NCBI GenBank assembly: GCA_024684155.1
Contig: JAIKXK010000265.1
Location: 1 to 33,942 of the forward strand
Source of the DNA: Lachnospiraceae bacterium
GTDB lineage: Bacteria; Bacillota; Clostridia; Lachnospirales; Lachnospiraceae
Direction: 5' to 3'
Length of the DNA stretch: 33,942 nt
Part shown: positions 3,593 through 25,803 of the stretch, piece after piece
How positions within the stretch are numbered: the first letter of the stretch is position 1
Layout of the letters: the number at the start of each line of letters is the position of its first letter
Position numbers and translations under genes: made by a program
The notes under the pieces: generated by a model
Told to the model about the DNA's origin: nothing
Databases searched by the model: none
The model's input: only the letters and a program-made list of their open reading frames with translations

Positions 3593-3669
3593 AGATTGGA
3601 TATATTTACGATTTTATGTTTTAATAAAGGGTGGCAGATTTAGAAAAAACAGGAAAAAGAGGACGTAGA

Positions 3670-4599
3670 ATGAAAAAGAAAATTGCCGTATTAATCCCTT
3701 GTTTCAATGAAAGTGTTACCATTGAAAAGGTAGTAAGGGATTATAAGAGGGCGTTGCCTGAAGCAGATATTTATGTATACGACAATAATTCAACAGATCA
3801 TACAGATGAAATCGCAAGAAAGGCTGGAGCCATTGTACGTTATGAAAGACGTCAGGGAAAAGGAAATGTAATACGCAGTATGTTCCAGCAAGTAGATGCT
3901 GATTGTTATTTGATGATTGATGGAGACGACACTTATCCTGCAGAAAATGCAAGAGAAATGTGTGAGTATGTTTTAAATGATGGTGTTGATATGGTAATTG
4001 GCGACCGTTTATCTTCTACATATTTTACAGAGAATAAACGAGCCTTTCATAATTTCGGAAATGTCTTAGTTCGAAAACTGATTAATGGATTATTTCATAG
4101 CAATGTAAAGGACATTATGACAGGCTATCGAGCATTTAGTAAAACTTTTGTAAAGTCCTTCCCTGTTCTTTCAAAGGGATTTGAGATTGAAACAGAAATG
4201 ACTATTCATGCTCTAGATAAGAATTTCAATTTAAAAGAAATACCAGTTACTTATAGAGACAGACCAGAAGGAAGTGAATCGAAGTTAAATACCTTTAGCG
4301 ATGGGTTCAAAGTTCTTAGAACCATTGCTTCCTTGTGCAGAGATTATAAACCACTATTTTTCTTTACAATATTGGCACTGTTATTCTTTGCAGTGGGGAT
4401 GATACTGTTTATCCCGGTATTCTCTGAATATTTAAGTACAGGATTGGTACTTCGATTCCCTACGTTGTTTGTGTCTTGTATGAGTTTTATTATAGCAATG
4501 CTTATGTATGTCTGTGGACTAATCTTAAGTGTAATAGCAAAGAAACATCGACAGTTGTTTGAACTATATTTATATCAGTTAGAAAAAACGGAGGAATAA
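3670..4599 (+). CDS. Polyprenyl-phosphate glycosyltransferase (GT2, GtrB/CsbB/Ppm1-like, two C-terminal TM helices)
   Basis: [38 protein letters not shown] form the GT2 catalytic core. Two C-terminal hydrophobic helices follow ([23 protein letters not shown] and [27 protein letters not shown]). ATG 3670 is preceded by AGAGGA; the ORF-track GTG 3631 start looks like an over-extension. Confidence 0.75.
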
Positions 4600-10173: not shown

Positions 10174-10175
10174 AC

Positions 10176-10754: not shown

Positions 10755-10765
10755 GGATAGAAACT

Positions 10766-11608: not shown

Positions 11609-11619
11609 GGAATAGAGTT

Positions 11620-12927
11620 ATGGAAGAATATGCAATTCAAGTAAAAGATGTCAGCAAGATGTATAAATTATTTGATGACAATAAGTCACGAGTAATGGAT
11701 GCTCTTGGACTGACAAAGAAACAACTATATAAAGAACACTATGCTTTGCATCATATGGAGTTTGATGTAAAAAAAGGAGAAACCGTAGGATTAATCGGAA
11801 CCAATGGTGCTGGTAAATCCACCATATTAAAAATCATAACTGGTGTATTACATCCAACCGAGGGGAATGTGGAGATTGATGGAAGAATCTCTGCACTTCT
11901 AGAGTTAGGGGCTGGATTTAATATGGAGTATACCGGCATTGAAAATATTTACCTAAATGGAACAATGATTGGGTTCTCAAAAGAAGAAATAGATGAGAAG
12001 TTAGATGATATTTTAAATTTTGCCGATATTGGAGATTTTGTTTATCAGCCGGTGAAAACCTATTCTTCAGGTATGTTTGTTCGTTTGGCTTTTGCAGTAG
12101 CAATTAATATTGATCCTGAAATTCTGATTGTAGATGAAGCCCTTTCTGTTGGTGATGTTTTCTTCCAGGCAAAATGCTATAAAAAGTTTGAAGAATTTAA
12201 GGCAATGGGAAAGACAATCCTATTTGTAAGTCATGATTTATCCAGCATTACAAGATATTGTGATCGTGTCATTTTATTAAACAAAGGTCGTAAGCTTGCA
12301 GAAGGCACCCCTGGAGAAATGGTAAATCTTTACAAGCGAGTTTTGGCGGGAGCTGCTGATGTTGAGGGGATTGAAGCTGGAGAAAAAGGCGCATTAGAAC
12401 CTAAAACCGGTAGTGTGATAGATAAAGACGGAATGTGGAAAAGTCACTTTACCATTAACCCTAAGGTGGACGAGTATGGTGATGGTAAAGCAGAAATTAT
12501 AGATTTCGGTGTGTTTGATGAAAGAAATCTTGTAACAAATACACTTCAAAAAGGAGAGAAATTTACCATTCGCTCAAGGGTAAAGTTCCATTCGAAAATG
12601 GAAAATCCTATTTTTACTTATACCTTAAAGAATATTCAGGGAGTAGCGATTACTGGTACTAACACCATGTATGAAAAAGTAGATACAGATACTGCAAATG
12701 ATGGTGATGTATATGAAGTTGCTTTTTCTCAGGAAATGAGTCTTCAGGGCGGTGAATACTTATTATCGATTAGTTGTACCAGCTATGAAGGTGGAGAATT
12801 CCATGTTCATAATCGTTTATATGATGTAATTAACTTAACGGTGATTTCGACACAAAACACCGTAGGATTTTATGATATGTTTTCTGAAGTTTCAGTGGAA
12901 CGTAATGGAGAAACCATATTAAACTAG
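11620..12927 (+). CDS. Polysaccharide export ABC ATPase with C-terminal extension (Wzt/TagH/RgpD-like, Wzt_C-type putative glycan-binding domain)
   Basis: Walker A GTNGAGKST, signature YSSGMFVRLAFA, Walker B ILIVDEALSVGD and H-loop VSHD lie within about aa 1-245. Residues about 250-435 (12367-12924) form an extra beta-rich domain (AEIIDFGVFD..FTIRSRVKF..YEVAFSQEMSLQGGEYLLSIS). Confidence 0.85.
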   Translation: MEEYAIQVKDVSKMYKLFDDNKSRVMDALGLTKKQLYKEHYALHHMEFDVKKGETVGLIGTNGAGKSTILKIITGVLHPTEGNVEIDGRISALLELGAGFNMEYTGIENIYLNGTMIGFSKEEIDEKLDDILNFADIGDFVYQPVKTYSSGMFVRLAFAVAINIDPEILIVDEALSVGDVFFQAKCYKKFEEFKAMGKTILFVSHDLSSITRYCDRVILLNKGRKLAEGTPGEMVNLYKRVLAGAADVEGIEAGEKGALEPKTGSVIDKDGMWKSHFTINPKVDEYGDGKAEIIDFGVFDERNLVTNTLQKGEKFTIRSRVKFHSKMENPIFTYTLKNIQGVAITGTNTMYEKVDTDTANDGDVYEVAFSQEMSLQGGEYLLSISCTSYEGGEFHVHNRLYDVINLTVISTQNTVGFYDMFSEVSVERNGETILN

Positions 12928-13796
12928 TGGGGGTCACTTTGAAACAAGAAGAATTAATGCGAATACAAAGCATTGTGGAAGATGGGAAAAACCTTTCTTA
13001 TTCCGAAAAAAAAGAATATTTCCAGACAGAAGCATTCCATAGCGAATCGGTGTCTGTATTGGAACAGTTATCTTATTATAGAGAAAATCTCTACAATTGG
13101 TATCCGTTTCAATCCAGTGATCGTGTTTTAGTTTTAGGATGTGAGTGTGGCTATCTAACGGACTTTCTTTGCCAAAAGGTGAAGAAAGTTGTTTGCGTTG
13201 AACAGGAAAAAATATTTTCAGATATTTGTAATTCGAGATTTCATCAATATGAGAATTTTCAAATGGTAATCGTAGATCATCTCCTTTCCTTTGCAAAAGA
13301 TGAAAAAGAGGAATATGACATTATTATCTGTGATCATGGCATAGAAAAATATGGAGAAGCCTTATTTGAAGTTTTAAAAGAGCTTTGTAAGAGTACTACT
13401 ACCGTATTTGTTTCTGGTTCTAATCGTTTGGGAATGAAATATTGGAATGGGGCGCAAACAAAACAATATCCCAATCTGTTTGCAGGATTGCAACAAGATT
13501 ATGTGAAAGTGGAACATAGATTGTATTCCAGAAAAGAATATATAAAACTATTTGCGCGGGCAGGGTTCGTAGATGATATTTATGAGTATTATCCTTATCC
13601 CGATGAAGTATTCCCAACTGCAATTTATTCAGAAAATCGTCTTCCTAAAGTAGGAGAATTAAATAAACAGTTAAGGGATTTTTCTGAAAAGAAGGTAAGC
13701 TTTTTTAAAGAAAACGAAGCGTTTGATGTTGTAATTGAACAGGAAAACTTCCCAGAGTTTTCCAACGGGTTATTATTTGTATTACAGGTGAAATAA
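12927..13796 (+). CDS. Class I SAM-dependent methyltransferase-like protein (variant motif I)
   Basis: DRVLVLGCECGYLTDFL (motif I with GxExG instead of GxGxG, 13137-13151), VVCVEQE (acidic end of beta-2) and YDIIICDHG (motif II). The start is uncertain: GTG 12927 overlaps the wzt-like stop by 1 nt, and TTG 12939 or ATG 12957 are also possible. Confidence 0.6.
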   Translation: MGVTLKQEELMRIQSIVEDGKNLSYSEKKEYFQTEAFHSESVSVLEQLSYYRENLYNWYPFQSSDRVLVLGCECGYLTDFLCQKVKKVVCVEQEKIFSDICNSRFHQYENFQMVIVDHLLSFAKDEKEEYDIIICDHGIEKYGEALFEVLKELCKSTTTVFVSGSNRLGMKYWNGAQTKQYPNLFAGLQQDYVKVEHRLYSRKEYIKLFARAGFVDDIYEYYPYPDEVFPTAIYSENRLPKVGELNKQLRDFSEKKVSFFKENEAFDVVIEQENFPEFSNGLLFVLQVK

Positions 13797-13797
13797 A

Positions 13798-16728
13798 ATG
13801 GAAAGAATTATTTATTCTAAGTTTTCCAATGACAGAAAAAAAGAATATGCTTTGGTAACAAAAATTCTATCAAAGGATAATGAATTATATGTGTTAAAGG
13901 AAAGTGAGGAAGAAACAGCAAAAAACCATATATTTAAGCTCGTGGAAATCTGTGAGGGGTTAAAAAAACAACTTTTAGATACAGACTTTTATGTTCCTAT
14001 GAGTAAGAAAACAACCAATGGAATCAGAATGGAATATGTAGAAGGCAAGACGCTAGAAGAACATTTTGACGAATTATTAGTAGAGGGAAAAACAAAGGAA
14101 TGTGCAGAAGAAATATATGATTTTTTAAAAGATCTTTTGGAAAAAATACCACACAGTGATTTTAAGATGACAGAAGAATTTTCTGACGTCTTTGGTGAGG
14201 TAACATTGCCAGAGGGGTTATCTAGTTTTGAATGGTCAGATATTGATTTAATTTTCCCTAATATTATTTTGAGTAATAAAGGAAAAGCTATTATTGATTA
14301 TGAATGGACGTTCCATTTTCCTGTTCCGGTGGAGTATATTTGGTTTCGCTCACTTCATAGCTATATTGATTATAGCGAGAAGAGAAAAGAACTTTTAGAT
14401 TATAACTTATATGAGAAACTTGGAATTACAGAAGATATGATAGGTGCATTTTGGAAGATGGAAGATGCTTTCCAAAGTGGTATTTATGAAAAGAGTAGTT
14501 CCTTGGATGAGTTCCATGAAAAGGTGGGGCTTGAGCATTTTTCTTTTCCTTCTGATTATGAGTGTATTCATATGCCAGAGGAAACACCTGGTGATTTCTT
14601 ACGTGTTATAGCAGAATTAGAATCCGAAATTGACAGACAGGTAGAGCGTAAGATGGAAGGGTCTTGCTCTATAAAAAAATTAATTTTATGGGCAGCAAAA
14701 CTTTATGGTAGCGCATCAGAGAAAGAAAAAGAGTTGGCTCATAGAAGTATGAATGCCTCCATGTATTCCTACGATATTTTATTTCCAAATGAGTTGCAAC
14801 ATGATGAATTTATAGTAGTAGATACTGTGAATCAGAAAGCAATGGATGGGCTAAATAGTGGAAAAATTGTTGTAGTGGATGATTGGCTTTATGACAAAGA
14901 AGAAGTGACTCTATGTGATTTACTAGAAGAAAAAACTGAACTGGATTGCAGTTTGTCTTTTTCATATAAGAATGCAAAAGTGTTTTTAGAAGAACGAATG
15001 AAAGATGAACAGAAAAAAACACAAACACTGTTTTCTAATGTGAGAAAAAGAGAAAGAGAAAAAAATGAGAGAAATCTTGCTACGAAAAAAAAGAACGTCA
15101 TATTCTTTTTGGTTTTAGGAGTTTTGACTGTTTTTCGTATTGGTTTGCAACTTCGCTTGCCTATAGGAGCATTTCCTGCTCAATATAGTGACGATGGTAT
15201 TATGATGAGTAATGCCATTAATCTTATGCAGGGAAACTATTTAGGAGAGTATAATTCCTATGTTTTAACAAAGGGGATTTCTTATTCCTTGTTTTTGGTA
15301 CTTACTTATGCAACCATGATTCCTTATGGAATGATGTTATGTATATGGAATATTATTTCTGCAGTAGTGTTTTTGCGCGGAATTTCGCCTCGGATATATT
15401 CAAAAAAATTATTTGCATTTTTATATTTGGTATTACTGTACTTACCAATAGGAATGGATCGATTTATTGGAACAAGAATTTATCGAATTGGAATTATGCC
15501 TTACTTTGCTCTTTTGGTAGCTGGCTGTGCAATTGGTGCTTATCTTAGAAGGGATAAGGGAAGCAAAGCTCTTTTGCCATGGCTGATCTTTGAGGGATTA
15601 TTCCTGGCATTTTTCTATAATATTCGTGAAGATTCTATTTGGATTATGCCATTAGTATTTGTGATTCTAATCATAGAGATAGCTTTAGTTTTCGGTGGAT
15701 TGTGTAAGAAAGAGATGAATCTTTCGAAATTTCTTAAAAGAAGTTTGTTGTATTTACTTCCCATCCTTATATTGTTTGGAACACAGCAGATTTATAAAGG
15801 GGTAAATTATTGTGTATATGGAATTGCAGAAGTAAATGATCGAGCAGGATCTTCCTATGCGGATGTATTAGAGGATTTATATCATATTGATGGCGAAATT
15901 GAGAGAGTAGATGTCTGGGTAACACAGGAAATGCTTCAGAATGCCATTGATGTAAGTCCAACACTTGCATCGATTGAGAAAGAAATCCATGAGAATATGG
16001 CTCAATGGGCAGTGGAAAAGCAGGTACGTGGAGATTTAGTTGGTTGGGCATTGCGAGAAGCAGTAGCAGAAGCTGGCTATTATAAAGATGCTGTTTCAAC
16101 CGAAGCGTTCTATGCTGATGTTCACAAAGAACTAACAGACGCTTTTTCCAACGGCTCTTTAAAGGAAAGGGATGGAATCTATTTATCTTCACAGTTACAG
16201 GCAACAACTCCAAAAGAACTTGTAAAGGTAGTATTAAAATCTCTTCGCACAATGTTTTATGATAGTACCTATTACGAAGTGAAGGCAGAAGCTCAAAAAG
16301 CTCAAGGAAATGTAGATGAAGTCCGTACCTTCGAAAGAGTTACTGGACAACTTGCAGTAATGACAGAAAAGGATTTAAAGGGATATAACAAAGAAGCGAT
16401 TACGGTTGCTAATGCAATTATTTTTGTTTATCGCATTCTGGGATTTATCACTACGCTTTTAAGTGTAGTTGCATATTTATATTTAACAATTTCACTGTTG
16501 AAAAAAAGAAAGTACCAAAATGTTATCTGTATGGATTCATGGTTGATTTTAACAGGTCTTATTCTCAGTGCATTTGTACTTTGTTTTGGAGTAATGATGG
16601 CCATGCGATGGTTTGTGGACAATGTGAATATTTGGTCTGCTTTTTATACAGCAGCTTGTTTTCCATATATTGTATTGTTTAAATGGCTGGCACTTTACTT
16701 AGGTTATAAAGAGTATAAGGAAGGATAA
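13798..16728 (+). CDS. Chimeric protein: N-terminal protein-kinase-like domain, charged/coiled linker, GT-C-like polytopic membrane domain with a ~200-aa extracytoplasmic insert
   Basis: The kinase-like signature comprises YVLKES (Lys34), MEYVEGKTL (hinge-like), DLIFPN (D150-x4-N155, 14245-14262) and IIDYEW (D167, 14296-14298), spaced as in APH/WbdD-type kinases. A K/E/R-rich stretch spans aa 395-432. TM1 starts near aa 433 and is followed by AQYSDDG (15190-15195). About 8 TMs, a soluble segment at about aa 660-860 and 3 more TMs follow. Confidence 0.55.
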   Translation: MERIIYSKFSNDRKKEYALVTKILSKDNELYVLKESEEETAKNHIFKLVEICEGLKKQLLDTDFYVPMSKKTTNGIRMEYVEGKTLEEHFDELLVEGKTKECAEEIYDFLKDLLEKIPHSDFKMTEEFSDVFGEVTLPEGLSSFEWSDIDLIFPNIILSNKGKAIIDYEWTFHFPVPVEYIWFRSLHSYIDYSEKRKELLDYNLYEKLGITEDMIGAFWKMEDAFQSGIYEKSSSLDEFHEKVGLEHFSFPSDYECIHMPEETPGDFLRVIAELESEIDRQVERKMEGSCSIKKLILWAAKLYGSASEKEKELAHRSMNASMYSYDILFPNELQHDEFIVVDTVNQKAMDGLNSGKIVVVDDWLYDKEEVTLCDLLEEKTELDCSLSFSYKNAKVFLEERMKDEQKKTQTLFSNVRKREREKNERNLATKKKNVIFFLVLGVLTVFRIGLQLRLPIGAFPAQYSDDGIMMSNAINLMQGNYLGEYNSYVLTKGISYSLFLVLTYATMIPYGMMLCIWNIISAVVFLRGISPRIYSKKLFAFLYLVLLYLPIGMDRFIGTRIYRIGIMPYFALLVAGCAIGAYLRRDKGSKALLPWLIFEGLFLAFFYNIREDSIWIMPLVFVILIIEIALVFGGLCKKEMNLSKFLKRSLLYLLPILILFGTQQIYKGVNYCVYGIAEVNDRAGSSYADVLEDLYHIDGEIERVDVWVTQEMLQNAIDVSPTLASIEKEIHENMAQWAVEKQVRGDLVGWALREAVAEAGYYKDAVSTEAFYADVHKELTDAFSNGSLKERDGIYLSSQLQATTPKELVKVVLKSLRTMFYDSTYYEVKAEAQKAQGNVDEVRTFERVTGQLAVMTEKDLKGYNKEAITVANAIIFVYRILGFITTLLSVVAYLYLTISLLKKRKYQNVICMDSWLILTGLILSAFVLCFGVMMAMRWFVDNVNIWSAFYTAACFPYIVLFKWLALYLGYKEYKEG

Positions 16729-16729
16729 T

Positions 16730-17749
16730 ATGATTATTAAACTTGGAATTGCCTGTATAGGAATTCTTCTGTCTTCCCTATGTGTGGGACTGAATTTTAT
16801 AAAGGAAAAATTTAATATTGTGGAAGCGGTATTATATGGATTTCTTGGAGTCTTGGGAGGATTAGAAGTCATTTCTCTTCCGTGCATCTATCTTAGACAA
16901 AGCTTTTCTTCGTTTTTTTTGATCGGACTTATTGCAGTAGTTGTAGCATCTGTTATAGGTGTGTTTAGAAAGCGTAAATATTTGCTGACCTGGATAAAGG
17001 AAAGTGTTCGGGGAATTCCTAAAAATATATATTTCTTTATATTTTTGGTTTTCTTATTGGGACAGGTAGGAATATTACAGCTTACTTATCATATGGATGA
17101 AGATGATGCCTTTTATGTTGCTACTAGTACGACTTCGATAGATACGGATACGTTATATATTTATGATGCATTTACAGGAGAAGCTTATGATACCTATCCA
17201 GCAAGATATGTATTATCCCCATTTCCTTTGTATACAGCTTTTGTAGCAAAATGTTTCGGTCTTCGACCTATGGTGGTAGCCCATACAGTTTTTGCAGCTG
17301 TTATGATTATATTGGCGTATGGTGCAATCTGGCTGTTTTCGGAATTATTCTTTGAGGATGGAGAAAAGAAAAGTATTGTCATGGTAATAGCTTCAGGACT
17401 TACAGTATTTTCTTATTATTCTGCTGACATTGCAGGAGCTAGACTTTTGCTTCGCCCATGGCAGGGGAAAACTCTGTTAGCATCCATTGTATTGCCAGTC
17501 ATATTGTATTTTGTTTTAAAATGCGGGAAAAAAGCGAGTATGTCGCTTTTGGAATTTTGTCTGTTATTTCTTATGATGTTAGGCGCATGCTTTGTATCCT
17601 CTATGGGAATTGTTTTATCAGTTGTTATGCTTGGTGTTATTCTTGTAGTTTTATTTTTGCAGACAAAAAATATAAAAATGTTGTTGCAGGGAATTGCTTG
17701 CTGCATTCCAGGAGCAGCACTTTCTTTGATTTATTTAATGATTCGATAG
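16730..17749 (+). CDS. Polytopic membrane protein of unknown function (GT-C-like acidic loop motif)
   Basis: 339 aa with about 9-10 hydrophobic segments. An RKRKYLL loop (inside) is followed by TM4 and then YHMDEDDAFYVATS (DEDD at 17096-17107), predicted outside. AGGAAGGA lies upstream of the ATG. Confidence 0.45.
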   Translation: MIIKLGIACIGILLSSLCVGLNFIKEKFNIVEAVLYGFLGVLGGLEVISLPCIYLRQSFSSFFLIGLIAVVVASVIGVFRKRKYLLTWIKESVRGIPKNIYFFIFLVFLLGQVGILQLTYHMDEDDAFYVATSTTSIDTDTLYIYDAFTGEAYDTYPARYVLSPFPLYTAFVAKCFGLRPMVVAHTVFAAVMIILAYGAIWLFSELFFEDGEKKSIVMVIASGLTVFSYYSADIAGARLLLRPWQGKTLLASIVLPVILYFVLKCGKKASMSLLEFCLLFLMMLGACFVSSMGIVLSVVMLGVILVVLFLQTKNIKMLLQGIACCIPGAALSLIYLMIR

Positions 17750-17758
17750 GATAGAAAA

Positions 17759-19402
17759 ATGATAGAAGTATTTGCGGATGTAATGAAAAACTTTTTAGAG
17801 TTTTTCAATGGAAATTATACTTATATAGTTTTATATGTATTGGCCTTAATTGTAATGGTTATCTGGATGAAGAAAAAAGATGTGACAAAGAATCTTATCT
17901 GGATGAGTATTCTATTATCTATTGTAATTTTCTGCCCAATTACTGCAAAGATAATTATGGTGGGACTTGGAGATAATGTATATTGGAGGATGTTTTGGCT
18001 ATATCCATTCATTCCAGTTATTTCAGTTGCATTGACTTTATTAGTATCAAAGGTAAAGCATAAATTGTTACGTTTTTTTGCAGTGGGAATGTGCGGAGTG
18101 TTTATTCTTTTGGCCGGGAATTCCGTCATCAGTAAGGAATTGTTTGATCGAGCAGAAAACTATGAAAAGACTCCACAGTACGTAATAGAAGTTTGTAACA
18201 TGATTAACGAGGATGCAAAAGAGCAGAATATTACAGATAAAAAATTAGCAACCTGCTCAGCATTTTTATTATATGTGAGACAATATGATGCTACATTAAA
18301 AATGGAAAATAGTAGAGAAAACATTCGTGGGTTTGATGATAGAGAAAATGCATCTATGATTTTTCAATACTTATGTGGTCAAAATGAGAGCATTGATTAT
18401 GATGAGCTGGCAGAATTACTTCGGGAAGAAAACTGTTCCTACATTGTTTTAGATATGGAATATCAGACAGAAATGGGAAGCGAATTAGTAAATCGGGGCT
18501 TTACTCCTGTTGGAAATTATGGACAGTATTATGTTTATAGAGATGGATTCATCAATCTTATGGAACCAATTGAAAACAACGAAGTGGTCAGTCAGTTTGC
18601 AACTTCTGATTCGGGATATTTAATCGGACAATACGCGTCCTTAACAGGGGATCAATCTTCCTTTTATACTATTACAGATACAAAAGGACATTTGATTGTT
18701 ATTGACGGAGGATGGAAAGGGGATAGCGAATATGTTCGTCAGGTAATTGATTACTTTGGCGGAAAAGTGGATGCCTGGATTATTACACATCCTCACTTTG
18801 ACCATGTTCGTGCCTTTAATACCTTAATGGCATCAGAAAACTGCCCAGAAATCACTACGATTTATGCTTCTGAATTTGATTATGATCAATATAAAGAAGA
18901 AGCCAAAAACTGGGATCATTTTGAAGACTTTGAAGATTTTTTAAGCGTTACAAAGGATGCTACGAATTTAGAATATTTACATGCAGGAGACTCTTTGGAA
19001 ATTTGTGGCTTACAAGTGGATGTTTACCATGATTATTCTACCAAAGATGGGGGAGATGCCTGTAATGATGGTTCTTTGGTTTTTGAAGTGACAGCAAACC
19101 AACAAAGTATGCTCTTTTGTGGAGATACAGGAGAGGAACAGTCAGAGACGATTATAGAAAATTATGGAGAACAACTTTCAGCAGATTATCTTCAAATGGG
19201 ACACCACGGAAATGGCGGGTTAAATGAAGAATTCTATAAATTAGTTTCTCCTTCAGTGGCTTTTTTCGATGCACCAGAGTGGCTTATGAATCCAGAGGGA
19301 GAAACTACCTATACCACACCTGAAAATCGTGAGTTGATGGAGTCCCTAGGTGCAAAGATTTATTATTTTAATACAGCACCAAATTATATTATTTTGGATT
19401 AA
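17759..19402 (+). CDS. Membrane-anchored metallo-beta-lactamase-fold hydrolase (ComEC/Pce-type MBL domain), 4 N-terminal TM helices
   Basis: There are 4 TMs in aa 20-123, with KKKDVTK and SKVKHKLLR loops. The MBL motifs are VIDGG, THPHFDH (HxHxDH, 18788-18805), LFCGDTGEE and LQMGHHGNGG, the last being the ComEC-like xHHGS motif. The positive-inside rule places the C-terminal 420 aa outside the membrane. Confidence 0.7.
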   Translation: MIEVFADVMKNFLEFFNGNYTYIVLYVLALIVMVIWMKKKDVTKNLIWMSILLSIVIFCPITAKIIMVGLGDNVYWRMFWLYPFIPVISVALTLLVSKVKHKLLRFFAVGMCGVFILLAGNSVISKELFDRAENYEKTPQYVIEVCNMINEDAKEQNITDKKLATCSAFLLYVRQYDATLKMENSRENIRGFDDRENASMIFQYLCGQNESIDYDELAELLREENCSYIVLDMEYQTEMGSELVNRGFTPVGNYGQYYVYRDGFINLMEPIENNEVVSQFATSDSGYLIGQYASLTGDQSSFYTITDTKGHLIVIDGGWKGDSEYVRQVIDYFGGKVDAWIITHPHFDHVRAFNTLMASENCPEITTIYASEFDYDQYKEEAKNWDHFEDFEDFLSVTKDATNLEYLHAGDSLEICGLQVDVYHDYSTKDGGDACNDGSLVFEVTANQQSMLFCGDTGEEQSETIIENYGEQLSADYLQMGHHGNGGLNEEFYKLVSPSVAFFDAPEWLMNPEGETTYTTPENRELMESLGAKIYYFNTAPNYIILD

Positions 19403-19421: not shown

Positions 19422-20774
19422 ATGCAGGGAAAGAAAAAAATATTTACCATTGTGTTTTTTGCATTTGCAGGAGCACATATTTTAACATTTACCCACGGAG
19501 ATTCTACTAGAATTATGGAATGGGCGAAGCTATTTTTAGATAGCTTGTTTTCTGGAAATATTAGAAATTATGCTGAAGTATTATTGGATAAAGATATCCC
19601 TTCAAACTACAGCATTTTTATTCATATTATAAATTCCATTTGGGTGCTTCCTGTATATGGGATTGATACTTTTATAGATGGAGATATACCTTTATATGTG
19701 TATTCCATGTGGCACCGTGTGCTGTCAGTTCTGCTTACGTTTATTACTATGGGCTATATAGAAAAAATAGGAATACATTTTGGTGTGTCTAGGGAAAAAA
19801 TGGAAGTTGCTACGTTTTTCTATGGCATTTCTACACCACTAATTGTAGGAACTTATGCTATGGGACAAATTGATGCATACCCAACGTTGTTTATGGTAAT
19901 GGGGTTATATTATTTGCTTGAAGAAAAAACGACAGAATCCATTTTATCCTTTTCAGTGATTTTATTTTTAAAACCGTTTGCCTTTATGTATATAGCTCCT
20001 ATGCTGCTGTTATATTTTGCAGATAAATGGAAAAAAGCAATTCCTTATGGAGTATTAGTCGGTATAGTTTGGATTGTGAAAAAACTTGTTACAAAGATAT
20101 TTATCGGATATGGAGATATGGTCTATGTAGAAGAGGTGGAATGGGATCATTTAAGCTTCTTTTTCACTTCAGAGATAAATGTCTTACCACTTTTTGTATT
20201 AACGGTGGGAGTTGTACTTTGTATCTGTTTTGTAAAGGGCATGAAAGGAAAGGTGAAAGAGTGGGATTATATTTACTATCCATATGTAGTATTTTTAGCT
20301 TTTGTAGCATTTAACTTTTGGAATCCCCAGTGGTTTTTGTATGGGATGCCTTTTATCACAATTATATTGTGTAAGATGTGTAATGAAGCAGAAGCAATGG
20401 CTTTTGGTGCAGGCATAAATGGGGCATATTTACTCTTTAACTATTGTGCTTTTAATGGCATGGTGGAAAGTAATATGATTGCAGGTGGACTTATTGCAAA
20501 AACAAGTGGCATTAAGTGGAAAAGTGCAAGCTTACTTGGATTAATTGCAAATAAAATGCCTACAATATCAGGGTACATAACTTCAATTAGTTTAGGAATA
20601 TTAGTGGCTTGTATGATATATGTTTGTTATGCTACTAGGAAAGAGACGTTAGAAGCAGAAGTAGTGGATGCATCTTTGTTTGAAAATAAGAAAAAAGCTT
20701 TTTTGGTTTTATTTGTGATGATATCCATATTTATGATTATATATTCTTATTTTGAGCTATTTAGATGGAATTAA
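19422..20774 (+). CDS. Polytopic membrane protein of unknown function (possible GT-C glycosyltransferase, polymerase or ligase)
   Basis: 450 aa with about 11-12 hydrophobic segments. The N-terminal MQGKKK (inside) is followed by TM1 and then THGDSTRIMEW opening an external loop. TAGGAG lies upstream. I recognise no soluble domain or named motif. Confidence 0.4.
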   Translation: MQGKKKIFTIVFFAFAGAHILTFTHGDSTRIMEWAKLFLDSLFSGNIRNYAEVLLDKDIPSNYSIFIHIINSIWVLPVYGIDTFIDGDIPLYVYSMWHRVLSVLLTFITMGYIEKIGIHFGVSREKMEVATFFYGISTPLIVGTYAMGQIDAYPTLFMVMGLYYLLEEKTTESILSFSVILFLKPFAFMYIAPMLLLYFADKWKKAIPYGVLVGIVWIVKKLVTKIFIGYGDMVYVEEVEWDHLSFFFTSEINVLPLFVLTVGVVLCICFVKGMKGKVKEWDYIYYPYVVFLAFVAFNFWNPQWFLYGMPFITIILCKMCNEAEAMAFGAGINGAYLLFNYCAFNGMVESNMIAGGLIAKTSGIKWKSASLLGLIANKMPTISGYITSISLGILVACMIYVCYATRKETLEAEVVDASLFENKKKAFLVLFVMISIFMIIYSYFELFRWN

Positions 20775-20903: not shown

Positions 20904-22196
20904 ATGAAAAAATTTTTCAGCAAAAAGAGAAACATAGTGATTGCCGTAATTGTTGTAATTGCATTAGCTGCAGCAGGTGTTGGCGGATACTATTATTTCT
21001 TTGTTGGAACAAGTAGCGAGGATATTGCATATGTGTCCAGCGTAGCAACAATTACAGGCCAGACTGCAAATGGATTAAATAATCGCTATGCAGGTGTTGT
21101 AGAGGCCGAAGAGACTTGGAGTGTAGCATTGGATAGTTCTTTAACGGTTAGTGAGACTTATGTTGAAGTAGGACAGGAGGTAGAGGCAGATACTCCTTTA
21201 TTTTCCTATGATATGACTGAAACAGAAGCATCCCTTCGAAGTGCACAGTTAGAACTAGAAAGATTAAACAACGAACTTACTGCAATGCAAACAGATTTAA
21301 ATGAGTTAGTTGCTGCAAGGGATGCAACAGGGGATGAAAGTGCAAAGGCGGAATATACAGTTGAAATTCAACAGTCCCAGTTAGATATTACCTCAAAGCA
21401 GTATGATATTACTTCGAAAAAAGAGGAAATTACAAAACTTCAGGAAACGTTAAATAAGGGAACGGTAAACAGTAAAATCGCAGGAGTGGTAAAGTCAATT
21501 GCATCATCAGATAGTAGTGAGATGTCTGATTCAAATGCATTTATTACCATTGTAAATATGAATAAGTTCCAAATTAAAGGAAGTGTAAATGAACAGAATT
21601 TAGCTTCTTTATCTGCAGATTTACCAGTCATTGTGTATTCAAGATCAGATAGCGAGGCTTATTGGAAGGGAACGATTACAAAGGTAGATTCGAATAATGC
21701 TACAAGTAATGGTTCTGATGAGACTGACTCAGATGAAATGACGTCTTCCTCTAACTACCCATTCTATGTTTCAGTAGAAGATACCACTGGTTTAAATATG
21801 GGACAGCACGTTTATATTGAACTAGACCAAGGACAGTTGGAAGAGGATACTTCTGCTATTTCATTAGAGGAATACTATATCGATATGACAGATGAACAAA
21901 ATCCATTTGTTTGGGTGGATGAAGATGGTAAGCTGGCAAAACGAAGTGTAACCCTTGGCGAATATAATGAGGATACCATGACCTACGTAATAACAGATGG
22001 GTTAGACCTTACTGACTTAATTGCAGTGCCTTATGAAGGATTAAAAGAGGGTATGGAGACTTCAAATATGGATGAAGTAGATACAGAGGATGTCAGTGAA
22101 GAAGGTGACTACGAAGAGTCTGAAGAATCAGAAGGCGATGTAGAAGAATTAACCGATGATTCTGAAATGGAAGATGAGGGTGAAATAGAGGAGTAA
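20904..22196 (+). CDS. HlyD/MacA-family membrane-fusion (periplasmic adaptor) protein 1, with acidic C-terminal tail
   Basis: An N-terminal TM (IVIAVIVVIALAAAGVGGYYYFF), lipoyl halves (RYAGVVEAEE..VEVGQEVEADTPLFSYD and KIAGVVKSI), a coiled-coil hairpin (SLRSAQLELERLNNELTAMQTDLNEL..) and a beta-barrel/MP domain. The last 42 aa (22068-22193) are overwhelmingly D/E/S. Confidence 0.8.
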   Translation: MKKFFSKKRNIVIAVIVVIALAAAGVGGYYYFFVGTSSEDIAYVSSVATITGQTANGLNNRYAGVVEAEETWSVALDSSLTVSETYVEVGQEVEADTPLFSYDMTETEASLRSAQLELERLNNELTAMQTDLNELVAARDATGDESAKAEYTVEIQQSQLDITSKQYDITSKKEEITKLQETLNKGTVNSKIAGVVKSIASSDSSEMSDSNAFITIVNMNKFQIKGSVNEQNLASLSADLPVIVYSRSDSEAYWKGTITKVDSNNATSNGSDETDSDEMTSSSNYPFYVSVEDTTGLNMGQHVYIELDQGQLEEDTSAISLEEYYIDMTDEQNPFVWVDEDGKLAKRSVTLGEYNEDTMTYVITDGLDLTDLIAVPYEGLKEGMETSNMDEVDTEDVSEEGDYEESEESEGDVEELTDDSEMEDEGEIEE

Positions 22197-22213
22197 TCCC
22201 GGAGGAGAATAAA

Positions 22214-22936
22214 TTGATTTTAGAAATGAAAAACGTTTATAAAGATTTTCCTCAGGGAGATTTCACTGTAAACGTATTAAAACATATTAATATTCAAATC
22301 CAAGAAGGCGATTATGTTGCTATTACTGGACCATCCGGTTCTGGAAAAACCACAATGATGAACTTAATCGGTTGCTTGGATTCAGTTACCAAAGGCCAAA
22401 TGATTTTGGATGGAGAGGATGTTAGCTCTTATACAGATAATCAACTTTCTGATTTAAGACTCCATAAAATTGGATTTGTATTTCAGAACTTTGAATTGTT
22501 AGGACAAAAGAGTGCAATTAAAAATGTTTGTGTTCCTTTGGCTTTTGCAGGAGTTCCGAAAAAAGAACAAATGGAAAGAGCAAAGGAAGCTTTAGAGAGG
22601 GTAGGATTAGGAGAGAGATTAGATTTCAAACCAAATCAGTTATCCGGTGGACAAAAACAAAGGGTTGCAATTGCAAGAGCCATGATCAATCGTCCACGTA
22701 TTTTACTTGCAGATGAGCCTACAGGTGCATTAGATTCAGCATCAGGAAAGGCAGTAATGGAGCTCTTTCAGCAGTTAAATGATGAAGGAACTACTATTAT
22801 AATGATTACTCATGACGCAGATGTTGCAGCAAAGGCGAAACGCAGAGCTGTAATGCGAGATGGTATATTAACTTCAGATGATGAGACTTTGGTACCACCT
22901 TATGAGGGAGAGGAGGTGCCTGAAAATGACCAATAA
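22214..22936 (+). CDS. MacB-family ABC transporter ATP-binding protein
   Basis: Walker A GPSGSGKTT, Q-loop, LSGGQKQRVAIARA, ILLADEPTGALD and ITHD. TTG 22214 lies 7 nt after GGAGGAG; ATG 22226 is an alternative start. The N-terminus MILEMKNVYKDF fits the family consensus. Confidence 0.9.
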   Translation: MILEMKNVYKDFPQGDFTVNVLKHINIQIQEGDYVAITGPSGSGKTTMMNLIGCLDSVTKGQMILDGEDVSSYTDNQLSDLRLHKIGFVFQNFELLGQKSAIKNVCVPLAFAGVPKKEQMERAKEALERVGLGERLDFKPNQLSGGQKQRVAIARAMINRPRILLADEPTGALDSASGKAVMELFQQLNDEGTTIIMITHDADVAAKAKRRAVMRDGILTSDDETLVPPYEGEEVPENDQ

Positions 22937-24533
22937 AGAGTGGAGTCTTAAGAAAAAGATTATTGTTGGCATTCTTGTTGGAATTCTCATATTTGCATTA
23001 GTGATTGGTGTCGTTTATATCGCTGTGTATTCTAATATGGGAAAGGTTCGCGTTATCCCTGTATCTGATGCCATTGGATATGATTCTGATTCTGATCAGT
23101 ATACTATGGAAGGAAGTATTAGCACAGGGGTTACTCAAGATGTAACAACAGAAGATGGAAAAGTTTCTGAAATTTTAGTAAAGGTTGGAGACTATGTTGA
23201 AAAGGGCACTGCTTTAGTGAGATTAGATGCAACTGAAGCTCAACTTCAATTAGAACAGGCGAAAATTGATTTACAATCAAAGCAGGTTGATTTGAATAAT
23301 GCTTATGCAAAGCAGGAAATGCTGAATAATGCTCAAAGTTATGTAGAGACAATAAAAGTTCCTGTGGATTCTGATGATGAAGACAGTTCTGAAAGCGATT
23401 CTGATTCTTCTAGTGAAAGTTCTGATTCATCATCAGATTCAGAGTCTTCTGATGATAGCGATTCCGATTCAGAGTCTTCCGAAGAAAGTGATTCAGATTC
23501 TGATTCATCTGAAGAAAGTGACTCGGATTCCGATTCGTCCAGTGATAGTTCTGATTCATCATCAGATTCAGAATCAGAGTCTTCCGAAGAAAGTGATTCA
23601 GAAACTGAGTATAAGGAAGTGGTAGTGGAAACAGATGAACCACAATTTCAAACTTCGGATGGGACTATTTATTCAGAATCAGAATTACGAAAAGAAAAGA
23701 CTTCTACAGAAAATGACATTAGAGATTTACAAACGGATATTAAGGAAGCTCAGGTAAATATAGAAAATGCACAGGAAACTTTAGATAACTGTACCGTAAA
23801 AGCAACCTTGGATGGTTATGTGACAAAGGTGTCTGAAACCGCAATTAAAAGCGACACTTCTGAAGAGGACTCAGATGAGGATGAAGAAGAACTAGATGGG
23901 GAAATCGATACCTCATCAGATATTGTTTCAGATACAGATGATAGCATGGAAGATGATGGGGTTATTGTCCAGGTGTCTTCCTTGGATGGTTTATTTGTGA
24001 AATCTGCTATGAGTGAATGGCGATTAGAAAAATTTGGTGTGGGAGACACTGTCTATGTCATGGATTGGGAAAGTGGCAATACCTATAAGGCAACCATTAC
24101 TACTATTTCTTCTTATGCTTCTGAATATTATTCACAGATGTATCAGTATATGGGAGGAACTTCATCAAGTTACTATCCTTTTACAGCGCAGATTACAGAA
24201 GATGGAACAGGACTTACTGCTGGAGATTATGTAGATGTTTCTTTTAGCGCTTCCATGGATATGGATAGCGATGAGGAAGAATACACTGAAGATGGACCAA
24301 TTAGCCTGATGAAAGCATTTGTTCGCACTGAAAATGGAAAGAAGTACGTTTATGTAAGAGGTGAGAATGACAAATTAAAGAAACAGTATGTAACTGTTGA
24401 TAGTCAGTCTCAGGAAACCTATACCATATCAGAGGGTCTTACCTATGATGATTATATCGCGTTCCCTTATGGAAATAATGTAAGAGAAGGCGCATTAACG
24501 GTAGAAGGTAGCATTGATGAATTATATGAATAA
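22926..24533 (+). CDS. HlyD/MacA-family membrane-fusion protein 2, carrying an 81-aa Ser/Asp/Glu tract in the hairpin region
   Basis: ATG 22926 follows GGAGGAGG and overlaps the ATPase stop by 11 nt; the ORF-track start 22878 is an over-extension. Features are a TM (IIVGILVGILIFALVIGVVYIAV), a lipoyl half (ILVKVGDYVEKGTALVRLD), helix 1 (EAQLQLEQAKIDLQSKQVDLNNAYAKQEMLNNAQ), the S/D/E tract, helix 2 (RKEKTSTENDIRDLQTDIKEAQVNIENAQETLDNC) and LDGYVTKV. Confidence 0.8.
   Translation: MTNKEWSLKKKIIVGILVGILIFALVIGVVYIAVYSNMGKVRVIPVSDAIGYDSDSDQYTMEGSISTGVTQDVTTEDGKVSEILVKVGDYVEKGTALVRLDATEAQLQLEQAKIDLQSKQVDLNNAYAKQEMLNNAQSYVETIKVPVDSDDEDSSESDSDSSSESSDSSSDSESSDDSDSDSESSEESDSDSDSSEESDSDSDSSSDSSDSSSDSESESSEESDSETEYKEVVVETDEPQFQTSDGTIYSESELRKEKTSTENDIRDLQTDIKEAQVNIENAQETLDNCTVKATLDGYVTKVSETAIKSDTSEEDSDEDEEELDGEIDTSSDIVSDTDDSMEDDGVIVQVSSLDGLFVKSAMSEWRLEKFGVGDTVYVMDWESGNTYKATITTISSYASEYYSQMYQYMGGTSSSYYPFTAQITEDGTGLTAGDYVDVSFSASMDMDSDEEEYTEDGPISLMKAFVRTENGKKYVYVRGENDKLKKQYVTVDSQSQETYTISEGLTYDDYIAFPYGNNVREGALTVEGSIDELYE
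23367..23609 (+). repeat. Imperfect tandem/dispersed coding repeat encoding 81 consecutive S/D/E residues (one T)
   Basis: The translation is DSDDEDSSESDSDSSSESSDSSSDSESSDDSDSDSESSEESDSDSDSSEESDSDSDSSSDSSDSSSDSESESSEESDSETE. One 26-nt exact repeat occurs at 23418-23443 and 23547-23572 (offset 129). One 29-nt exact repeat occurs at 23469-23497 and 23574-23602 (offset 105). Both offsets are multiples of 3. Confidence 0.95.
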
Positions 24534-24552
24534 TAAGAAATAAGAGGCGATT

Positions 24553-25803
24553 ATGAGAGAAAATTTAGTCGAAGCGTTACAGGAAATTTGGTCTCATAAA
24601 ATGAGATCATTCTTAACAATGCTAGGTGTTATTATAGGTATTGCGTCTATTATTGCAATTGTTTCCACCATTAAAGGTACCAATGATCAAATAATGAAAG
24701 ACTTGGTAGGAAAGGGTAATAATAACGTATCTATTAGTTTATACCAGGGTGATTACGAGTATTATTTTGAAGGGGATACAGTTTCGGAAATTACGCAGGT
24801 AACAGAAGAGCAACAGGAAGAAATCCGTTCCATCGAACATGTGGAAGATGCCACATTTTATAATTCAAGAACTTATGTAGATAATATTTCGGCTGGTTCA
24901 AAGGTGTTATCAGGTGGAAAGATTTACGGGATTGATACACATTATTTAAATACATGTGGATATGTGGTATATCAAGGTCGTGCCTTTGTGGATATTGACT
25001 ATAAAAAGTGTAATAAGGTAGCACTTTTGGATTCTACTGCTGCAGATATTTTATTTCCTGGAGAAAACGCAGTTGGTCAAACGTTAGAAATTAGCGGAGA
25101 ACCCTTTATTATTGTGGGATTATATCAACAGCAGACTGCCTTTGAACCAGATATTCAAAATCTGTCTGACTATGAAACCTATTATACGGAATCATATGGT
25201 ACGGTTTTAATACCAAATGTGGATTGGGCTATTTGCTATAAATATGATGAACCTCAAAACGCATTTGTACGAGCAGATGATACAGAAAATATGTCTGCGA
25301 TTGGAAAATCAGCTCAGAAAATTATGCAGGAGTGTATCTCATCTTCAGGAACAGATTTAACCTATACAGCAGAGGATTTAGTTGAGGAAGCTAAACAACA
25401 ACAGCAGTTGTCAAATAGTACTAATAACTTACTGATTTGGGTTGCTAGTATAGCCCTGTTAGTTGGGGGTATTGGCGTTATGAATATTATGCTGGTATCT
25501 GTAACAGAACGAACAAGAGAAATTGGTTTGAAGAGATCCCTTGGAGCCAGAAGACGAAGAATTCTAATGCAGTTTTTAACGGAATCTGCAGTTCTTACCA
25601 GTTTAGGCGGTGTTCTTGGCGTTGTGATAGGAATTGTAATGGCGGTAATTATATCAAATATTTCCGGAACACCAGTGGGAATTTCAGTGCCAGCCATTGT
25701 GGTGAGTGTAGCATTTTCTATGGTAATTGGAATTTTGTTTGGTTTACTCCCTTCCGTTAAAGCCGCTAATTTAAACCCAATCGATGCACTTCGAAGGGAA
25801 TAG
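24553..25803 (+). CDS. MacB-type ABC transporter permease (FtsX domain with large extracytoplasmic domain)
   Basis: The N-terminal MRSFLTMLGVIIGIASIIAIVS TM is followed by an extracytoplasmic domain of about 240 aa and a C-terminal FtsX 3-TM bundle (LLVGGIGVMNIMLVSVTERTREIGLKRSLGARRRRI...NLNPIDALRRE). AAGAGG lies upstream. Confidence 0.9.
   Translation: MRENLVEALQEIWSHKMRSFLTMLGVIIGIASIIAIVSTIKGTNDQIMKDLVGKGNNNVSISLYQGDYEYYFEGDTVSEITQVTEEQQEEIRSIEHVEDATFYNSRTYVDNISAGSKVLSGGKIYGIDTHYLNTCGYVVYQGRAFVDIDYKKCNKVALLDSTAADILFPGENAVGQTLEISGEPFIIVGLYQQQTAFEPDIQNLSDYETYYTESYGTVLIPNVDWAICYKYDEPQNAFVRADDTENMSAIGKSAQKIMQECISSSGTDLTYTAEDLVEEAKQQQQLSNSTNNLLIWVASIALLVGGIGVMNIMLVSVTERTREIGLKRSLGARRRRILMQFLTESAVLTSLGGVLGVVIGIVMAVIISNISGTPVGISVPAIVVSVAFSMVIGILFGLLPSVKAANLNPIDALRRE

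Follow-up and report, generated by a model that had tools for sequence, protein, structure and literature searches.

We have analyzed an open reading frame (ORF) that encodes a 547 amino acid (aa) membrane protein with a metallo-beta-lactamase (MBL) domain, located at nucleotides (nt) 17759 to 19402 of a 33,942 nt stretch of DNA from a Lachnospiraceae bacterium (contig JAIKXK010000265.1 of GenBank assembly GCA_024684155.1; the whole stretch is referred to below as the window). The protein consists of four transmembrane (TM) helices, an alpha/beta linker domain and the MBL domain. Its main partner is the product of the gene immediately upstream, a polytopic membrane protein of the Pfam family DUF6077; this partner was overlooked in a first-pass annotation of the window, which had pointed to a kinase-like/methyltransferase gene pair instead. 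Pairing or fusion with DUF6077 is obligate, and the MBL domain is an optional module. On balance, we favour the view that DUF6077, together with the four TM helices and the linker, forms a split unit resembling the GT-C class of glycosyltransferases, which would decorate an exported polymer, and that the grafted MBL domain would be an ecto-phosphodiesterase editing the glycopolymer or its lipid-linked precursor. The coordinates of the relevant features are collected in Table 1.

Pairing of the MBL gene with DUF6077

Loci were surveyed in one genome per species, which gave 352 relatives; 80 loci were fetched and contigs from protein look-ups were added. The long form of the protein, with four TM helices, linker and MBL domain, is encoded in 42 loci, and in all 42 a DUF6077 gene is found directly upstream on the same strand. 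Isolates with the pair include Roseburia zhanii BX1005 (L017) and Pseudobutyrivibrio ruminis AD2017 (L090). No DUF6077 gene lies within 8 kb of the short genes that encode an MBL domain only.

The two genes also occur in several fused or shortened states. Locus L071 has a single ORF of 1008 aa (positions 15-3041) that encodes DUF6077, the four TM helices, two linkers and the MBL domain; this contig is only 3 kb long and comes from a metagenome-assembled genome (MAG), and an assembly or frameshift artefact is possible. A search with a DUF6077 profile against 1.84 billion representatives, in which the family comprises ~3,650 representative clusters, was the source of two proteins, P0263 (630 aa) and P0296 (694 aa), that contain DUF6077, the four TM helices and the linker without an MBL domain. 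Positions 5-260 of the profile of the 547 aa protein family match residues 377-623 of P0263 (E = 5e-36), in which the spacer between DUF6077 and the four-helix part is acidic and has no TM helix. In five other proteins (P0072, P0090, P0095, P0101 and P0106) the last two-thirds of DUF6077 are followed in the same chain by a single TM helix, the linker and the MBL domain. Finally, in Lactonifactor longoviformis (L061) and in L055 the DUF6077 gene is followed by a gene of 260 or 246 aa that encodes the four TM helices and the linker and ends where the MBL domain would begin.

Since DUF6077 and the four-helix and linker part are fused elsewhere, they make up one functional unit that is split in most genomes; since units without an MBL domain and stand-alone MBL proteins both occur, the MBL domain is an optional module. 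The predicted topologies of the two products are compatible with this arrangement. In DUF6077 a basic loop (aa 81-99, with six lysine or arginine residues) is predicted inside the cell and the DEDD and RPWQGK loops outside; its C-terminus is also predicted outside, compatible with the N-out start of the 547 aa protein. The first-pass annotation had regarded the four TM helices as an anchor for the MBL domain. The helices are indeed present, but because they are part of the split DUF6077 unit they are not a mere anchor.

The layout of the junction suggests that the two genes are translationally coupled: a Shine-Dalgarno sequence (AGGA) stands ahead of the MBL ORF, and its ATG follows the upstream stop codon at a distance of 9 nt. 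Both ORFs lie in one frame, with their starts 1029 nt apart and a TAG between them. The possibility that they are an artificially split single gene (a pseudogene or a readthrough case) was considered and rejected, as a Shine-Dalgarno sequence and an ATG are present and the orthologous gene pairs in L001 and L008 occupy different frames. The common frame here is taken as a coincidence, because the frames differ at other loci. Loss of the single TAG would recreate a fusion like that of L071 (16730-19402).

The MBL gene sits in a long same-strand operon, and the next gene begins 19 nt past its TAA; GC content is ~35%. The ORF called in the first-pass annotation is real, and all the motifs listed there were located, both those of the MBL domain (VIDGG at aa 314-318, THPHFDH at aa 343-349, CGDTGEE at aa 454-460 and MGHHGNGG at aa 480-487) and the basic stretches between TM helices (KKKDVTK at aa 38-44 and SKVKHKLLR at aa 97-105). 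We found 179 homologues of the 547 aa protein, the closest of them in Lachnospiraceae MAGs (66% identity). Residue conservation was assessed on two sets, the best 112 database homologues and 83 distinct proteins taken from species-representative genomes. A literature search on DUF6077 yielded no paper that mentions the family, and one on MBL domains combined with cell-wall polysaccharide or GT-C enzymes found nothing relevant; the architecture of a split GT-C-like unit with a grafted phosphodiesterase was not found described anywhere.

The MBL domain

The C-terminal domain matches the Pfam family Lactamase_B (PF00753) above the gathering score (E = 1.7e-11, from aa 296, nt 18644). An AlphaFold2 (AF2) model of the 547 aa protein, built with 64 homologues, has a predicted local distance difference test (pLDDT) score of 91.9. 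Foldseek returned 385 MBL-fold matches to this model in the PDB at E <= 1e-3. The MBL domain of ComEC is the top match (9ic4; E = 3e-15, target-normalised template modelling score TMt 0.76), followed by Pce, also called CbpE (1wra and 2bib; 8e-14 to 3e-13, TMt 0.64). A second tier begins at 1e-9 and includes arylsulfatase 8gyg (1.4e-9), YhfI, ElaC-like proteins, CPSF73 and RNase J. Among PDB sequences, phmmer found ComEC 9ic4 (5.5e-5), and the NCBIfam model ComEC_Rec2 (TIGR00361) matched aa 308-508 with an E-value of 6.8e-14, although its score of 50.9 bits lies well under the cutoff of 190. When a profile of the family was compared with PDB sequences the first matches were 9ic4 (3.7e-8), CbpE 12qj (7.6e-8) and 1wra (1.2e-7). 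The profile alignment to Pce spans motif II, the W-D pair, the 'DxxN(D)xS' loop and motif IV; that to ComEC is strongest across motifs IV-V and the strand that follows.

Pce and the ComEC MBL domain are each other's closest structural relatives (PMC5031224, PMC8579336, PMC12455585). The label 'ComEC/Pce-type', given in the first-pass annotation, is correct, because the fold ranking, the profile ranking and this kinship in the literature agree. The Foldseek comparison that had been proposed there places ComEC and Pce first and the arylsulfatase tier 5-6 orders of magnitude lower.

The constellation of D316, H344, H346, D348, H349, N436, D456, H482, H483, N485 and D504 is intact in 81 of the 83 distinct homologues, so that the metal ligands are kept in orthologues. 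D316, H344, H349, D456 and H483 are invariant, D348 is conserved in 95% and H346 in 86% of sequences, with Asp in the other 14%. Conservation in the family is likewise high for the W385-D386 pair (91-95%), for N436 of the NDGS motif (99%) and for N485 (98%). The claim that the full MBL motif set is present stands for motifs I, II, IV and V but not for the canonical His of motif III: the corresponding position, H424, varies between Asn (57%), Ser (24%) and His (19%). N436 may act as a substitute for motif III, since an Asn in place of the motif III His has been reported for ComEC (PMC8579336). The domain carries a net charge of -35 here, and the family mean is -22 (isoelectric point, pI, 4.1-4.9). 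We infer from the conserved residues that the domain is an active binuclear-metal phosphodiesterase.

The ComEC MBL domain is an extracellular, Mn2+-dependent phosphodiesterase/nuclease, and Pce is also an extracytoplasmic phosphodiesterase (PMC5031224, PMC8579336, PMC12455585). Pce, the teichoic-acid phosphorylcholine esterase of Streptococcus pneumoniae (2bib, 1wra, 12qj), shares with the 547 aa protein an extracytoplasmic MBL module and the HxHxDH form of motif II, behind which comes the W-D pair. Motif IV with its bridging Asp, and the N/D-rich 'DxxNxxS' loop ahead of it, are likewise common to the two, and both proteins are tied to wall glycopolymer. They differ in that identity is 15-17% and in that the 547 aa protein is an obligate partner of DUF6077 and has four TM helices and a linker instead of choline-binding repeats; Pfam finds in it neither CW_binding_1 nor any other repeat family. 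Its C-terminal half (GHHGNGG, FFDAP) is nearer to ComEC. The scanned ORFs of the window include no lic or choline gene. Judged by its identity and by the lack of a choline-binding module, the protein is not a Pce orthologue.

ComEC/Rec2 (9ic4; full-length 9vc6 and 30bt) is the best match in both structure and sequence. In both proteins the MBL domain is extracytoplasmic and C-terminal to a polytopic membrane module, motif V reads 'HHG', and an Asn/Asp-rich loop takes the place of a strict motif III His. However, the 547 aa protein has no oligonucleotide/oligosaccharide-binding (OB) fold and no channel domain (the Pfam families Competence and DUF4131 are not matched), its motif II is HPHFDH (HxHxDH, as in Pce) rather than the HxDxDH of ComEC, and where the HHGS motif of ComEC has a Ser, implicated in 5'-phosphate binding (PMC12455585), it has Asn485. 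Its MBL domain is strongly acidic and its gene lies in a glycan operon rather than a competence operon. Without channel domain or OB fold, and with a score below the family cutoff, the protein by these measures is not a ComEC. The MBL domain defines a third branch of the ComEC/Pce-type MBL phosphodiesterases predicted to face outward, whose members are free, anchored or fused.

Membrane topology and the linker domain

A hydropathy scan detects exactly four TM segments in the 547 aa protein. Loops 38-50 and 97-105 contain four lysine or arginine residues each. The N-terminus, loop 70-77 and the C-terminal part have few such residues and are acidic; the 423 aa C-terminal part has 26 basic against 78 acidic residues (Asp or Glu). 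Because the basic residues are concentrated in the two loops, the positive-inside rule gives an N-out/C-out topology. A second line of evidence comes from the short homologues (~290-330 aa). All 32 distinct sequences of this kind have an N-terminus rich in lysine and arginine, one hydrophobic segment and then the MBL domain, which starts ~5-10 residues after the TM anchor; three of the 32 have a lipobox, e.g. 'LIGC' in P0114. Extracytoplasmic placement can therefore be extended across the MBL family, since every short form has an anchor or lipobox followed by the MBL domain. The fusion-compatible topology with the upstream DUF6077 protein is a third line. Taken together, these predictions place the MBL domain outside the cell, as the first-pass annotation had proposed.

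The conserved residues of the four-helix module (P60, A63, Y75, P83 and N134) fall on its outer face. The module has a weak, sub-threshold match to the Pfam family YfhO (aa 16-157 against profile positions 337-477, E = 0.013), and it is probably the variable TM module of the GT-C-like unit. In the AF2 model a disordered hinge (aa ~121-139) separates the TM helices from the linker domain, which there spans aa ~140-290 and is followed by the MBL sandwich. The linker, which matched no Pfam family, always accompanies the four-helix module, whether or not an MBL domain follows (L061, L055, P0263 and P0296 included).

Table 1. Position and supporting evidence of the DUF6077/MBL gene pair, its domains and motifs, and a glycosyltransferase gene of the window
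Feature	Position (nt)	Strand	Basis
Glycosyltransferase (GT2) with two C-terminal TM helices, GtrB/CsbB-like architecture	3631..4599	+	Pfam GT2, E = 2.4e-18
DUF6077 polytopic membrane protein, 339 aa, ~10 TM	16730..17749	+	Pfam PF19554, E = 2.6e-87, full length
DUF6077 invariant sites	DEDD (D125, D126) 17096-17107; RYVLSPFP 17204-17227; H185; RPWQGK 17453-17470		
Junction: DUF6077 stop TAG 17747-17749, AGGA 17748-17751, 9-nt spacer before ATG	17747..17758	+	sequence read
MBL-bearing ORF, 547 aa, ATG start, TAA stop; four TM helices, linker, MBL	17759..19402	+	complete ORF
Four TM helices, aa 19-37, 51-69, 78-96, 106-124, N-out/C-out (predicted)	17813..18130	+	hydropathy, Lys/Arg counts, AF2 helices
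Extracytoplasmic (predicted) alpha/beta linker domain, aa ~135-290	18161..18628	+	AF2 secondary structure and pLDDT
ComEC/Pce-clade MBL-fold domain, aa 296-547	18644..19399	+	Pfam, NCBIfam, PDB sequence, Foldseek, conservation
MBL motif I, D316	18698-18712	+	
MBL motif II, H344-x-H346-x-D348-H349	18785-18805	+	
MBL N436, NDGS motif	19061-19075	+	
MBL motif IV, D456	19118-19138	+	
MBL motif V, H482, H483, N485	19196-19219	+	
MBL D504	19262-19276	+	

Resemblance of the DUF6077 unit to GT-C transferases

The unit formed by DUF6077 and the four-helix and linker part would comprise ~10 + 4 TM helices and a C-terminal alpha/beta domain outside the cell. The sequence D123-E-D-D126 of DUF6077, in which D125 and D126 are invariant, opens a predicted outside loop of 60 aa (aa 120-179), and R242, Q245, G246 and K247 are invariant in another predicted outside loop. 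A GtrB-like family 2 glycosyltransferase (GT2) lies directly upstream of the gene pair in 25 of the 42 loci, and GtrA is found in 19. The slot after a GtrB-like GT2 and GtrA is the one that a GT-C enzyme takes in multi-component transmembrane glycosylation systems (PMC8035078). GT-C enzymes are polytopic, with 8-13 or more TM helices. The likeness to them consists of this slot, the ~14 TM helices, the C-terminal outside alpha/beta domain and the DEDD in an outside loop. In addition, an AF2 model of DUF6077 (pLDDT 91.1) has the yeast GT-C enzyme Pmt4 (9e61, 9e6i) as its one coherent match in Foldseek, with a probability of 0.97, but with an E-value of 0.27 and a query-normalised score (TMq) of 0.42; the alignment has a root mean square deviation (rmsd) of 6.5 Å across 291 columns. 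All other matches have probabilities below 0.15 and rmsd of ~20 Å.

Several results weigh against this assignment, the poor E-value of the Pmt4 match among them. None of 41 DUF6077 sequences scanned against Pfam falls in a GT-C family, the DUF6077 profile has no match among PDB sequences, and hhalign found nothing between DUF6077 and the DUF2142 protein of the window. The comparison of DUF6077 with a 450 aa membrane protein of the window by hhalign was likewise negative, and a Pfam scan of the fused DUF6077 forms revealed no GT-C family. The best 150 matches listed in the DUF6077 profile search are all close relatives and gave no bridge to known families. The unit also departs from known GT-C enzymes in being divided between two genes in most genomes and in its hydrolase domain; the extra domains of known GT-C enzymes, where there are any, bind carbohydrate. 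We consider the chances that DUF6077 and the four-helix and linker part form a split GT-C-type transferase to be about even.

Proposed function and alternatives

We propose the following sequence of events. DUF6077 and the four-helix and linker part would assemble into a single polytopic unit whose catalytic face points out of the cell. This GT-C-type unit would decorate wall polysaccharide that has already been exported, with a lipid-phosphate-linked donor. The MBL domain, on the C-terminus of the unit, would be held at the outer face of the membrane beside the transferase. Either this glycopolymer or the lipid-linked precursor of it would offer the phosphodiester that the domain cleaves, editing or trimming as Pce does. 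Pce-like trimming of a phospho-substituent is the sub-option that we would favour; in the other, a polyprenyl-(pyro)phosphate species would be cleaved or recycled, and this keeps its place because the stand-alone forms have a very short tether. The GT-C chemistry, the phosphodiesterase activity and the substrate of the unit are all presumed in this proposal.

The window is a glycopolymer locus, as the first-pass annotation had recognized: it contains genes for RmlA, RmlC, an RmlD-like epimerase, UDP-galactopyranose mutase (Glf), several GT2 proteins, a WsaF-like rhamnosyltransferase, Wzm, Wzt with a Wzt_C domain, a methyltransferase, a polyprenyl-phosphate sugar-phosphate transferase (Bac_transf) and a LytR-CpsA-Psr (LCP) ligase. 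Clusters that house the gene pair are of two types. The window, L008/L011, L012 and L041 belong to type A, which depends on an ABC transporter; type B, with ~25 loci, is of the Wzx type and has the order GT2-GtrA-DUF6077-MBL-598 aa-GT2-GT2-Wzx-...-Bac_transf. In Lactonifactor an unfused MBL gene lies between the GT2, DUF6077 and four-helix/linker genes and the rml, Wzm and Wzt_C genes; its place in the same rhamnan-type cluster speaks for a link to a glycopolymer even where the MBL domain is unfused.

Other observations count against this proposal. Short MBL-only homologues occur in contexts unrelated to glycan synthesis, and a truncated DUF6077-MBL fusion lies between clpC and radA; because stand-alone forms and this fusion occur outside glycan clusters, the substrate of the MBL domain need not be the product of the operon. 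The ~5-10-residue tether of the short forms is no less suited to a membrane-lipid substrate than to a wall polymer, and the scanned ORFs of the window include no gene for the synthesis of a phospho-substituent (LicD/TagF type or CDP-alditol synthesis).

The general plan has an analogy in LtaS, GacH and EptA, where a polytopic TM module offers a lipid or polymer to a metal-dependent domain on the outside, and this domain forms or cleaves phosphodiesters of wall polymers. The catalytic domain of those enzymes, with its alkaline-phosphatase/sulfatase fold and a Thr or Ser nucleophile, would be unrelated in sequence and fold to the MBL domain.

A more ambitious form of the proposal is a bifunctional machine in which glycosylation by the split GT-C transferase and cleavage by the phosphodiesterase are one concerted step. 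It would work on exported polymer by a 'deprotect, then glycosylate' scheme, or it would use or clear a polyprenyl-(pyro)phosphate-linked donor. We regard this version as doubtful; if true, it would represent a new, Lachnospiraceae-specific class of wall-glycopolymer editing enzyme.

Alternatively, the MBL domain may act on the lipid carrier itself and cleave a polyprenyl-phosphate- or polyprenyl-pyrophosphate-linked species in the outer leaflet beside the transferase, for instance by releasing glycan from it, hydrolysing surplus sugar linked to undecaprenyl phosphate (C55-P) or recycling undecaprenyl pyrophosphate (C55-PP) to C55-P. The carrier is common to the ABC-dependent and the Wzx-dependent clusters in which the MBL family is housed, and the domain is fused to a GT-C-like membrane unit that would use a lipid donor; the stand-alone forms sit a few residues from their TM anchor. 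MBL enzymes that cut lipid phosphodiesters are known, NAPE-PLD being an example. In the long form, however, a linker domain of ~165 aa intervenes between the membrane and the MBL domain, its nearest relatives among characterised enzymes have wall polymer (Pce) and DNA (ComEC) as substrates rather than lipids, and some genomes have the GT-C-like unit without an MBL domain. We therefore consider action on the carrier rather unlikely.

The bond attacked could also be of another kind, with the domain being a sulfatase, lactonase, sugar de-acylase or beta-lactamase whose target would be the polymer or a small molecule. The MBL fold is chemically versatile, arylsulfatase 8gyg appears in the second Foldseek tier (1.4e-9), and there are weak NCBIfam matches to B3-like beta-lactamase models. 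Such matches are 5-6 orders of magnitude weaker than those to ComEC and Pce and far under the family cutoffs (e.g. 33.9 bits against 590 for blaAHM), and the features specific to Pce, W385-D386 and DxxNDGS, are present beyond the core motifs, which makes activity on a non-phosphodiester bond improbable.

The first-pass annotation had suggested a cycle of capping, export and uncapping linked to the kinase-like/methyltransferase pair. In full, the kinase-like protein (13798-16728) and the methyltransferase (12927-13796) would install a methyl-phosphate-type cap at the end of the chain, Wzt_C would read it for export and the MBL domain would remove it outside the cell. WbdD of Escherichia coli O9a is the model for such a methyl-phosphate cap, which is a phosphodiester and in its chemistry would suit a Pce-like enzyme. 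The window does contain Wzm, Wzt with Wzt_C, the methyltransferase and, directly upstream of the pair, the 976 aa protein with kinase-like motifs (DLIFPN...IIDYEW), and L008 repeats the same gene order. The association is not conserved, however. Across the 42 loci, Wzm/Wzt and the methyltransferase are each found in four and the 976 aa protein in two (same contig); outside the window the latter occurs on one other contig only (L008). L012 has Wzm/Wzt with neither the methyltransferase nor the 976 aa protein, the ~25 Wzx-type loci have a GtrB-like GT2 and GtrA but no Wzt, kinase or methyltransferase, and the kinase assignment finds no backing in Pfam, NCBIfam or the PDB. The proposed link to the kinase-like/methyltransferase pair is therefore not supported by the comparison of loci, and the cap cycle appears very unlikely.

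Equally little can be said for a ComEC-like extracellular nuclease that would degrade environmental or matrix DNA at the cell surface. The nuclease domain of ComEC is the top structural and sequence match, the ComEC_Rec2 model matches at 6.8e-14, and 14% of the homologues have the ComEC-type HxDxDH motif II. But the ComEC site is predicted to be strongly positive (PMC5031224) and the MBL domain is very acidic here (net -35; family mean -22, pI 4.1-4.9); DNA binding by the isolated ComEC MBL domain was undetectable and required the OB fold (PMC12455585), and the 547 aa protein has neither an OB fold nor a competence domain. Obligate pairing with a membrane protein of glycan clusters would have no rationale for a nuclease. 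A nuclease role is unlikely because of the Asn in place of the HHGS Ser, the strong acidity of the domain and the need of ComEC for its OB-fold partner in DNA binding.

Finally, the MBL domain might play no catalytic part and serve the GT-C-like enzyme by binding its acceptor. In GT-C enzymes the acceptor polymer is often bound by a C-terminal extracytoplasmic domain, and small members of the class have been speculated to depend on a second protein that binds the acceptor (PMC8035078). We find this reading hardly credible: the complete set of metal ligands is under strong purifying selection (81/83), the same domain also stands alone as a predicted ectoenzyme, and the constant extracytoplasmic part of the unit is the linker, not the MBL domain.

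Other genes of the window

The GT2 encoded at 3631-4599 has its TM segments within aa 243-302 and is weakly similar to the GtrB-like GT2 of L001 (E = 1e-5). As a candidate C55-P-sugar synthase, it could supply the donor for a GT-C step outside the membrane, and it may in this way be connected with the DUF6077/MBL pair. A GtrA homologue was looked for in the window and not found. The DUF2142 protein (1011-2465) is a further polytopic candidate for an acceptor-side enzyme. The listed TTG start of the UDP-galactopyranose mutase ORF (2336-3592, + strand) overlaps the DUF2142 gene by 130 nt; its Rossmann motif starts at ~aa 51, and the true start is probably downstream of 2465.

The 976 aa protein (13798-16728, + strand) has an N-terminal region of ~250 aa in which kinase-like motifs (VTK, MEYVEG, DLIFPN and IIDYEW) were recognized by eye, followed by a segment rich in Lys and Glu (~aa 390-430) and then ~nine TM helices with a large loop at aa ~635-870. 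Searches of Pfam, NCBIfam and the PDB all gave no match, and the kinase-like character is putative. The combination of kinase-like and polytopic membrane domains in one chain is unusual for a terminator of the WbdD type.

Directly 3' of the MBL gene, a 450 aa protein (19422-20774, + strand) with ~8 TM helices belongs to no Pfam or NCBIfam family and may be a lineage-specific polymerase, ligase or GT-C-like insertion. It was considered as a conserved third partner of the pair and rejected, since it is missing from L008, the closest syntenic contig, and is unrelated to the 598 aa membrane protein that follows the pair in type B clusters; in L008 an HlyD/YknX-like gene stands directly after the MBL gene in its place. 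A tripartite efflux set of the MacB type (20904-25803, + strand), made up of an HlyD-like protein, an ABC ATPase and an FtsX/MacB permease, lies between the two halves of the glycan locus. The HlyD-like protein (20904-22196) has a very acidic C-terminal tail. The ORF at 22878-24533 (551 aa) contains a long low-complexity tract rich in Ser, Asp and Glu; the listed version shares 59 nt with the ATPase ORF, and the true start is probably further downstream.

Relatives in other genomes and significance

The L061 locus of Lactonifactor longoviformis DSM 17459 (3011-16688) combines GT2, DUF6077 and the four-helix and linker gene without MBL in one operon. The pair is followed by genes for an IspD-like cytidylyltransferase and a short-chain dehydrogenase/reductase (SDR), which resemble CDP-alditol synthesis; the separate short MBL gene (7929-8819) is on the opposite strand, and then come RmlB, RmlA, RmlC, Wzm and Wzt with Wzt_C. 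It is the only locus with a candidate pathway for an alditol-phosphate (phosphodiester) substituent beside the DUF6077 unit. As a general clue to a phospho-substituent the CDP-alditol genes were rejected, since the IspD-like and SDR genes follow the pair in L061 only.

The truncated fusion P0106, which occurs on many contigs, lies at 10001-11794 of L002/L003 between clpC and a radA-like gene and beside phage tail-fibre-like genes, with no glycan genes within 10 kb. Because of this, the DUF6077-linker-MBL module is not confined to polysaccharide operons. P0103 (L006/L007, 495 aa) is a secreted protein in which ~200 aa of repeat-looking sequence, rich in Gly and aromatic residues, precede the MBL domain. 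Its setting resembles a mobile element or prophage, with an integrase or resolvase, an HNH gene, a toxin-antitoxin pair and a LexA-like gene. The N-terminal part was considered as a set of cell-wall-binding repeats, in parallel with Pce, and this was rejected, as Pfam finds no repeat family even at E <= 10.

Gut Lachnospiraceae carry a putative two-gene DUF6077 membrane enzyme in operons for cell-wall sugar polymers, and free, anchored and fused states of one MBL domain occur within this single bacterial family. The family includes dominant butyrate producers of the gut (Roseburia, the Eubacterium rectale group and Acetatifactor, for example), whose surface glycopolymers are almost unstudied. 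As half of a split GT-C-like enzyme, DUF6077 would acquire its first functional frame. If the MBL domain edits a phospho-substituent, the system would also test the idea that small GT-C enzymes need an acceptor-side protein (PMC8035078). Should that substituent be one of the wall polymer, edited in the manner of Pce, the enzyme would give a handle on surface variation, which bears on immune recognition and on the remodelling of phage receptors in gut commensals.

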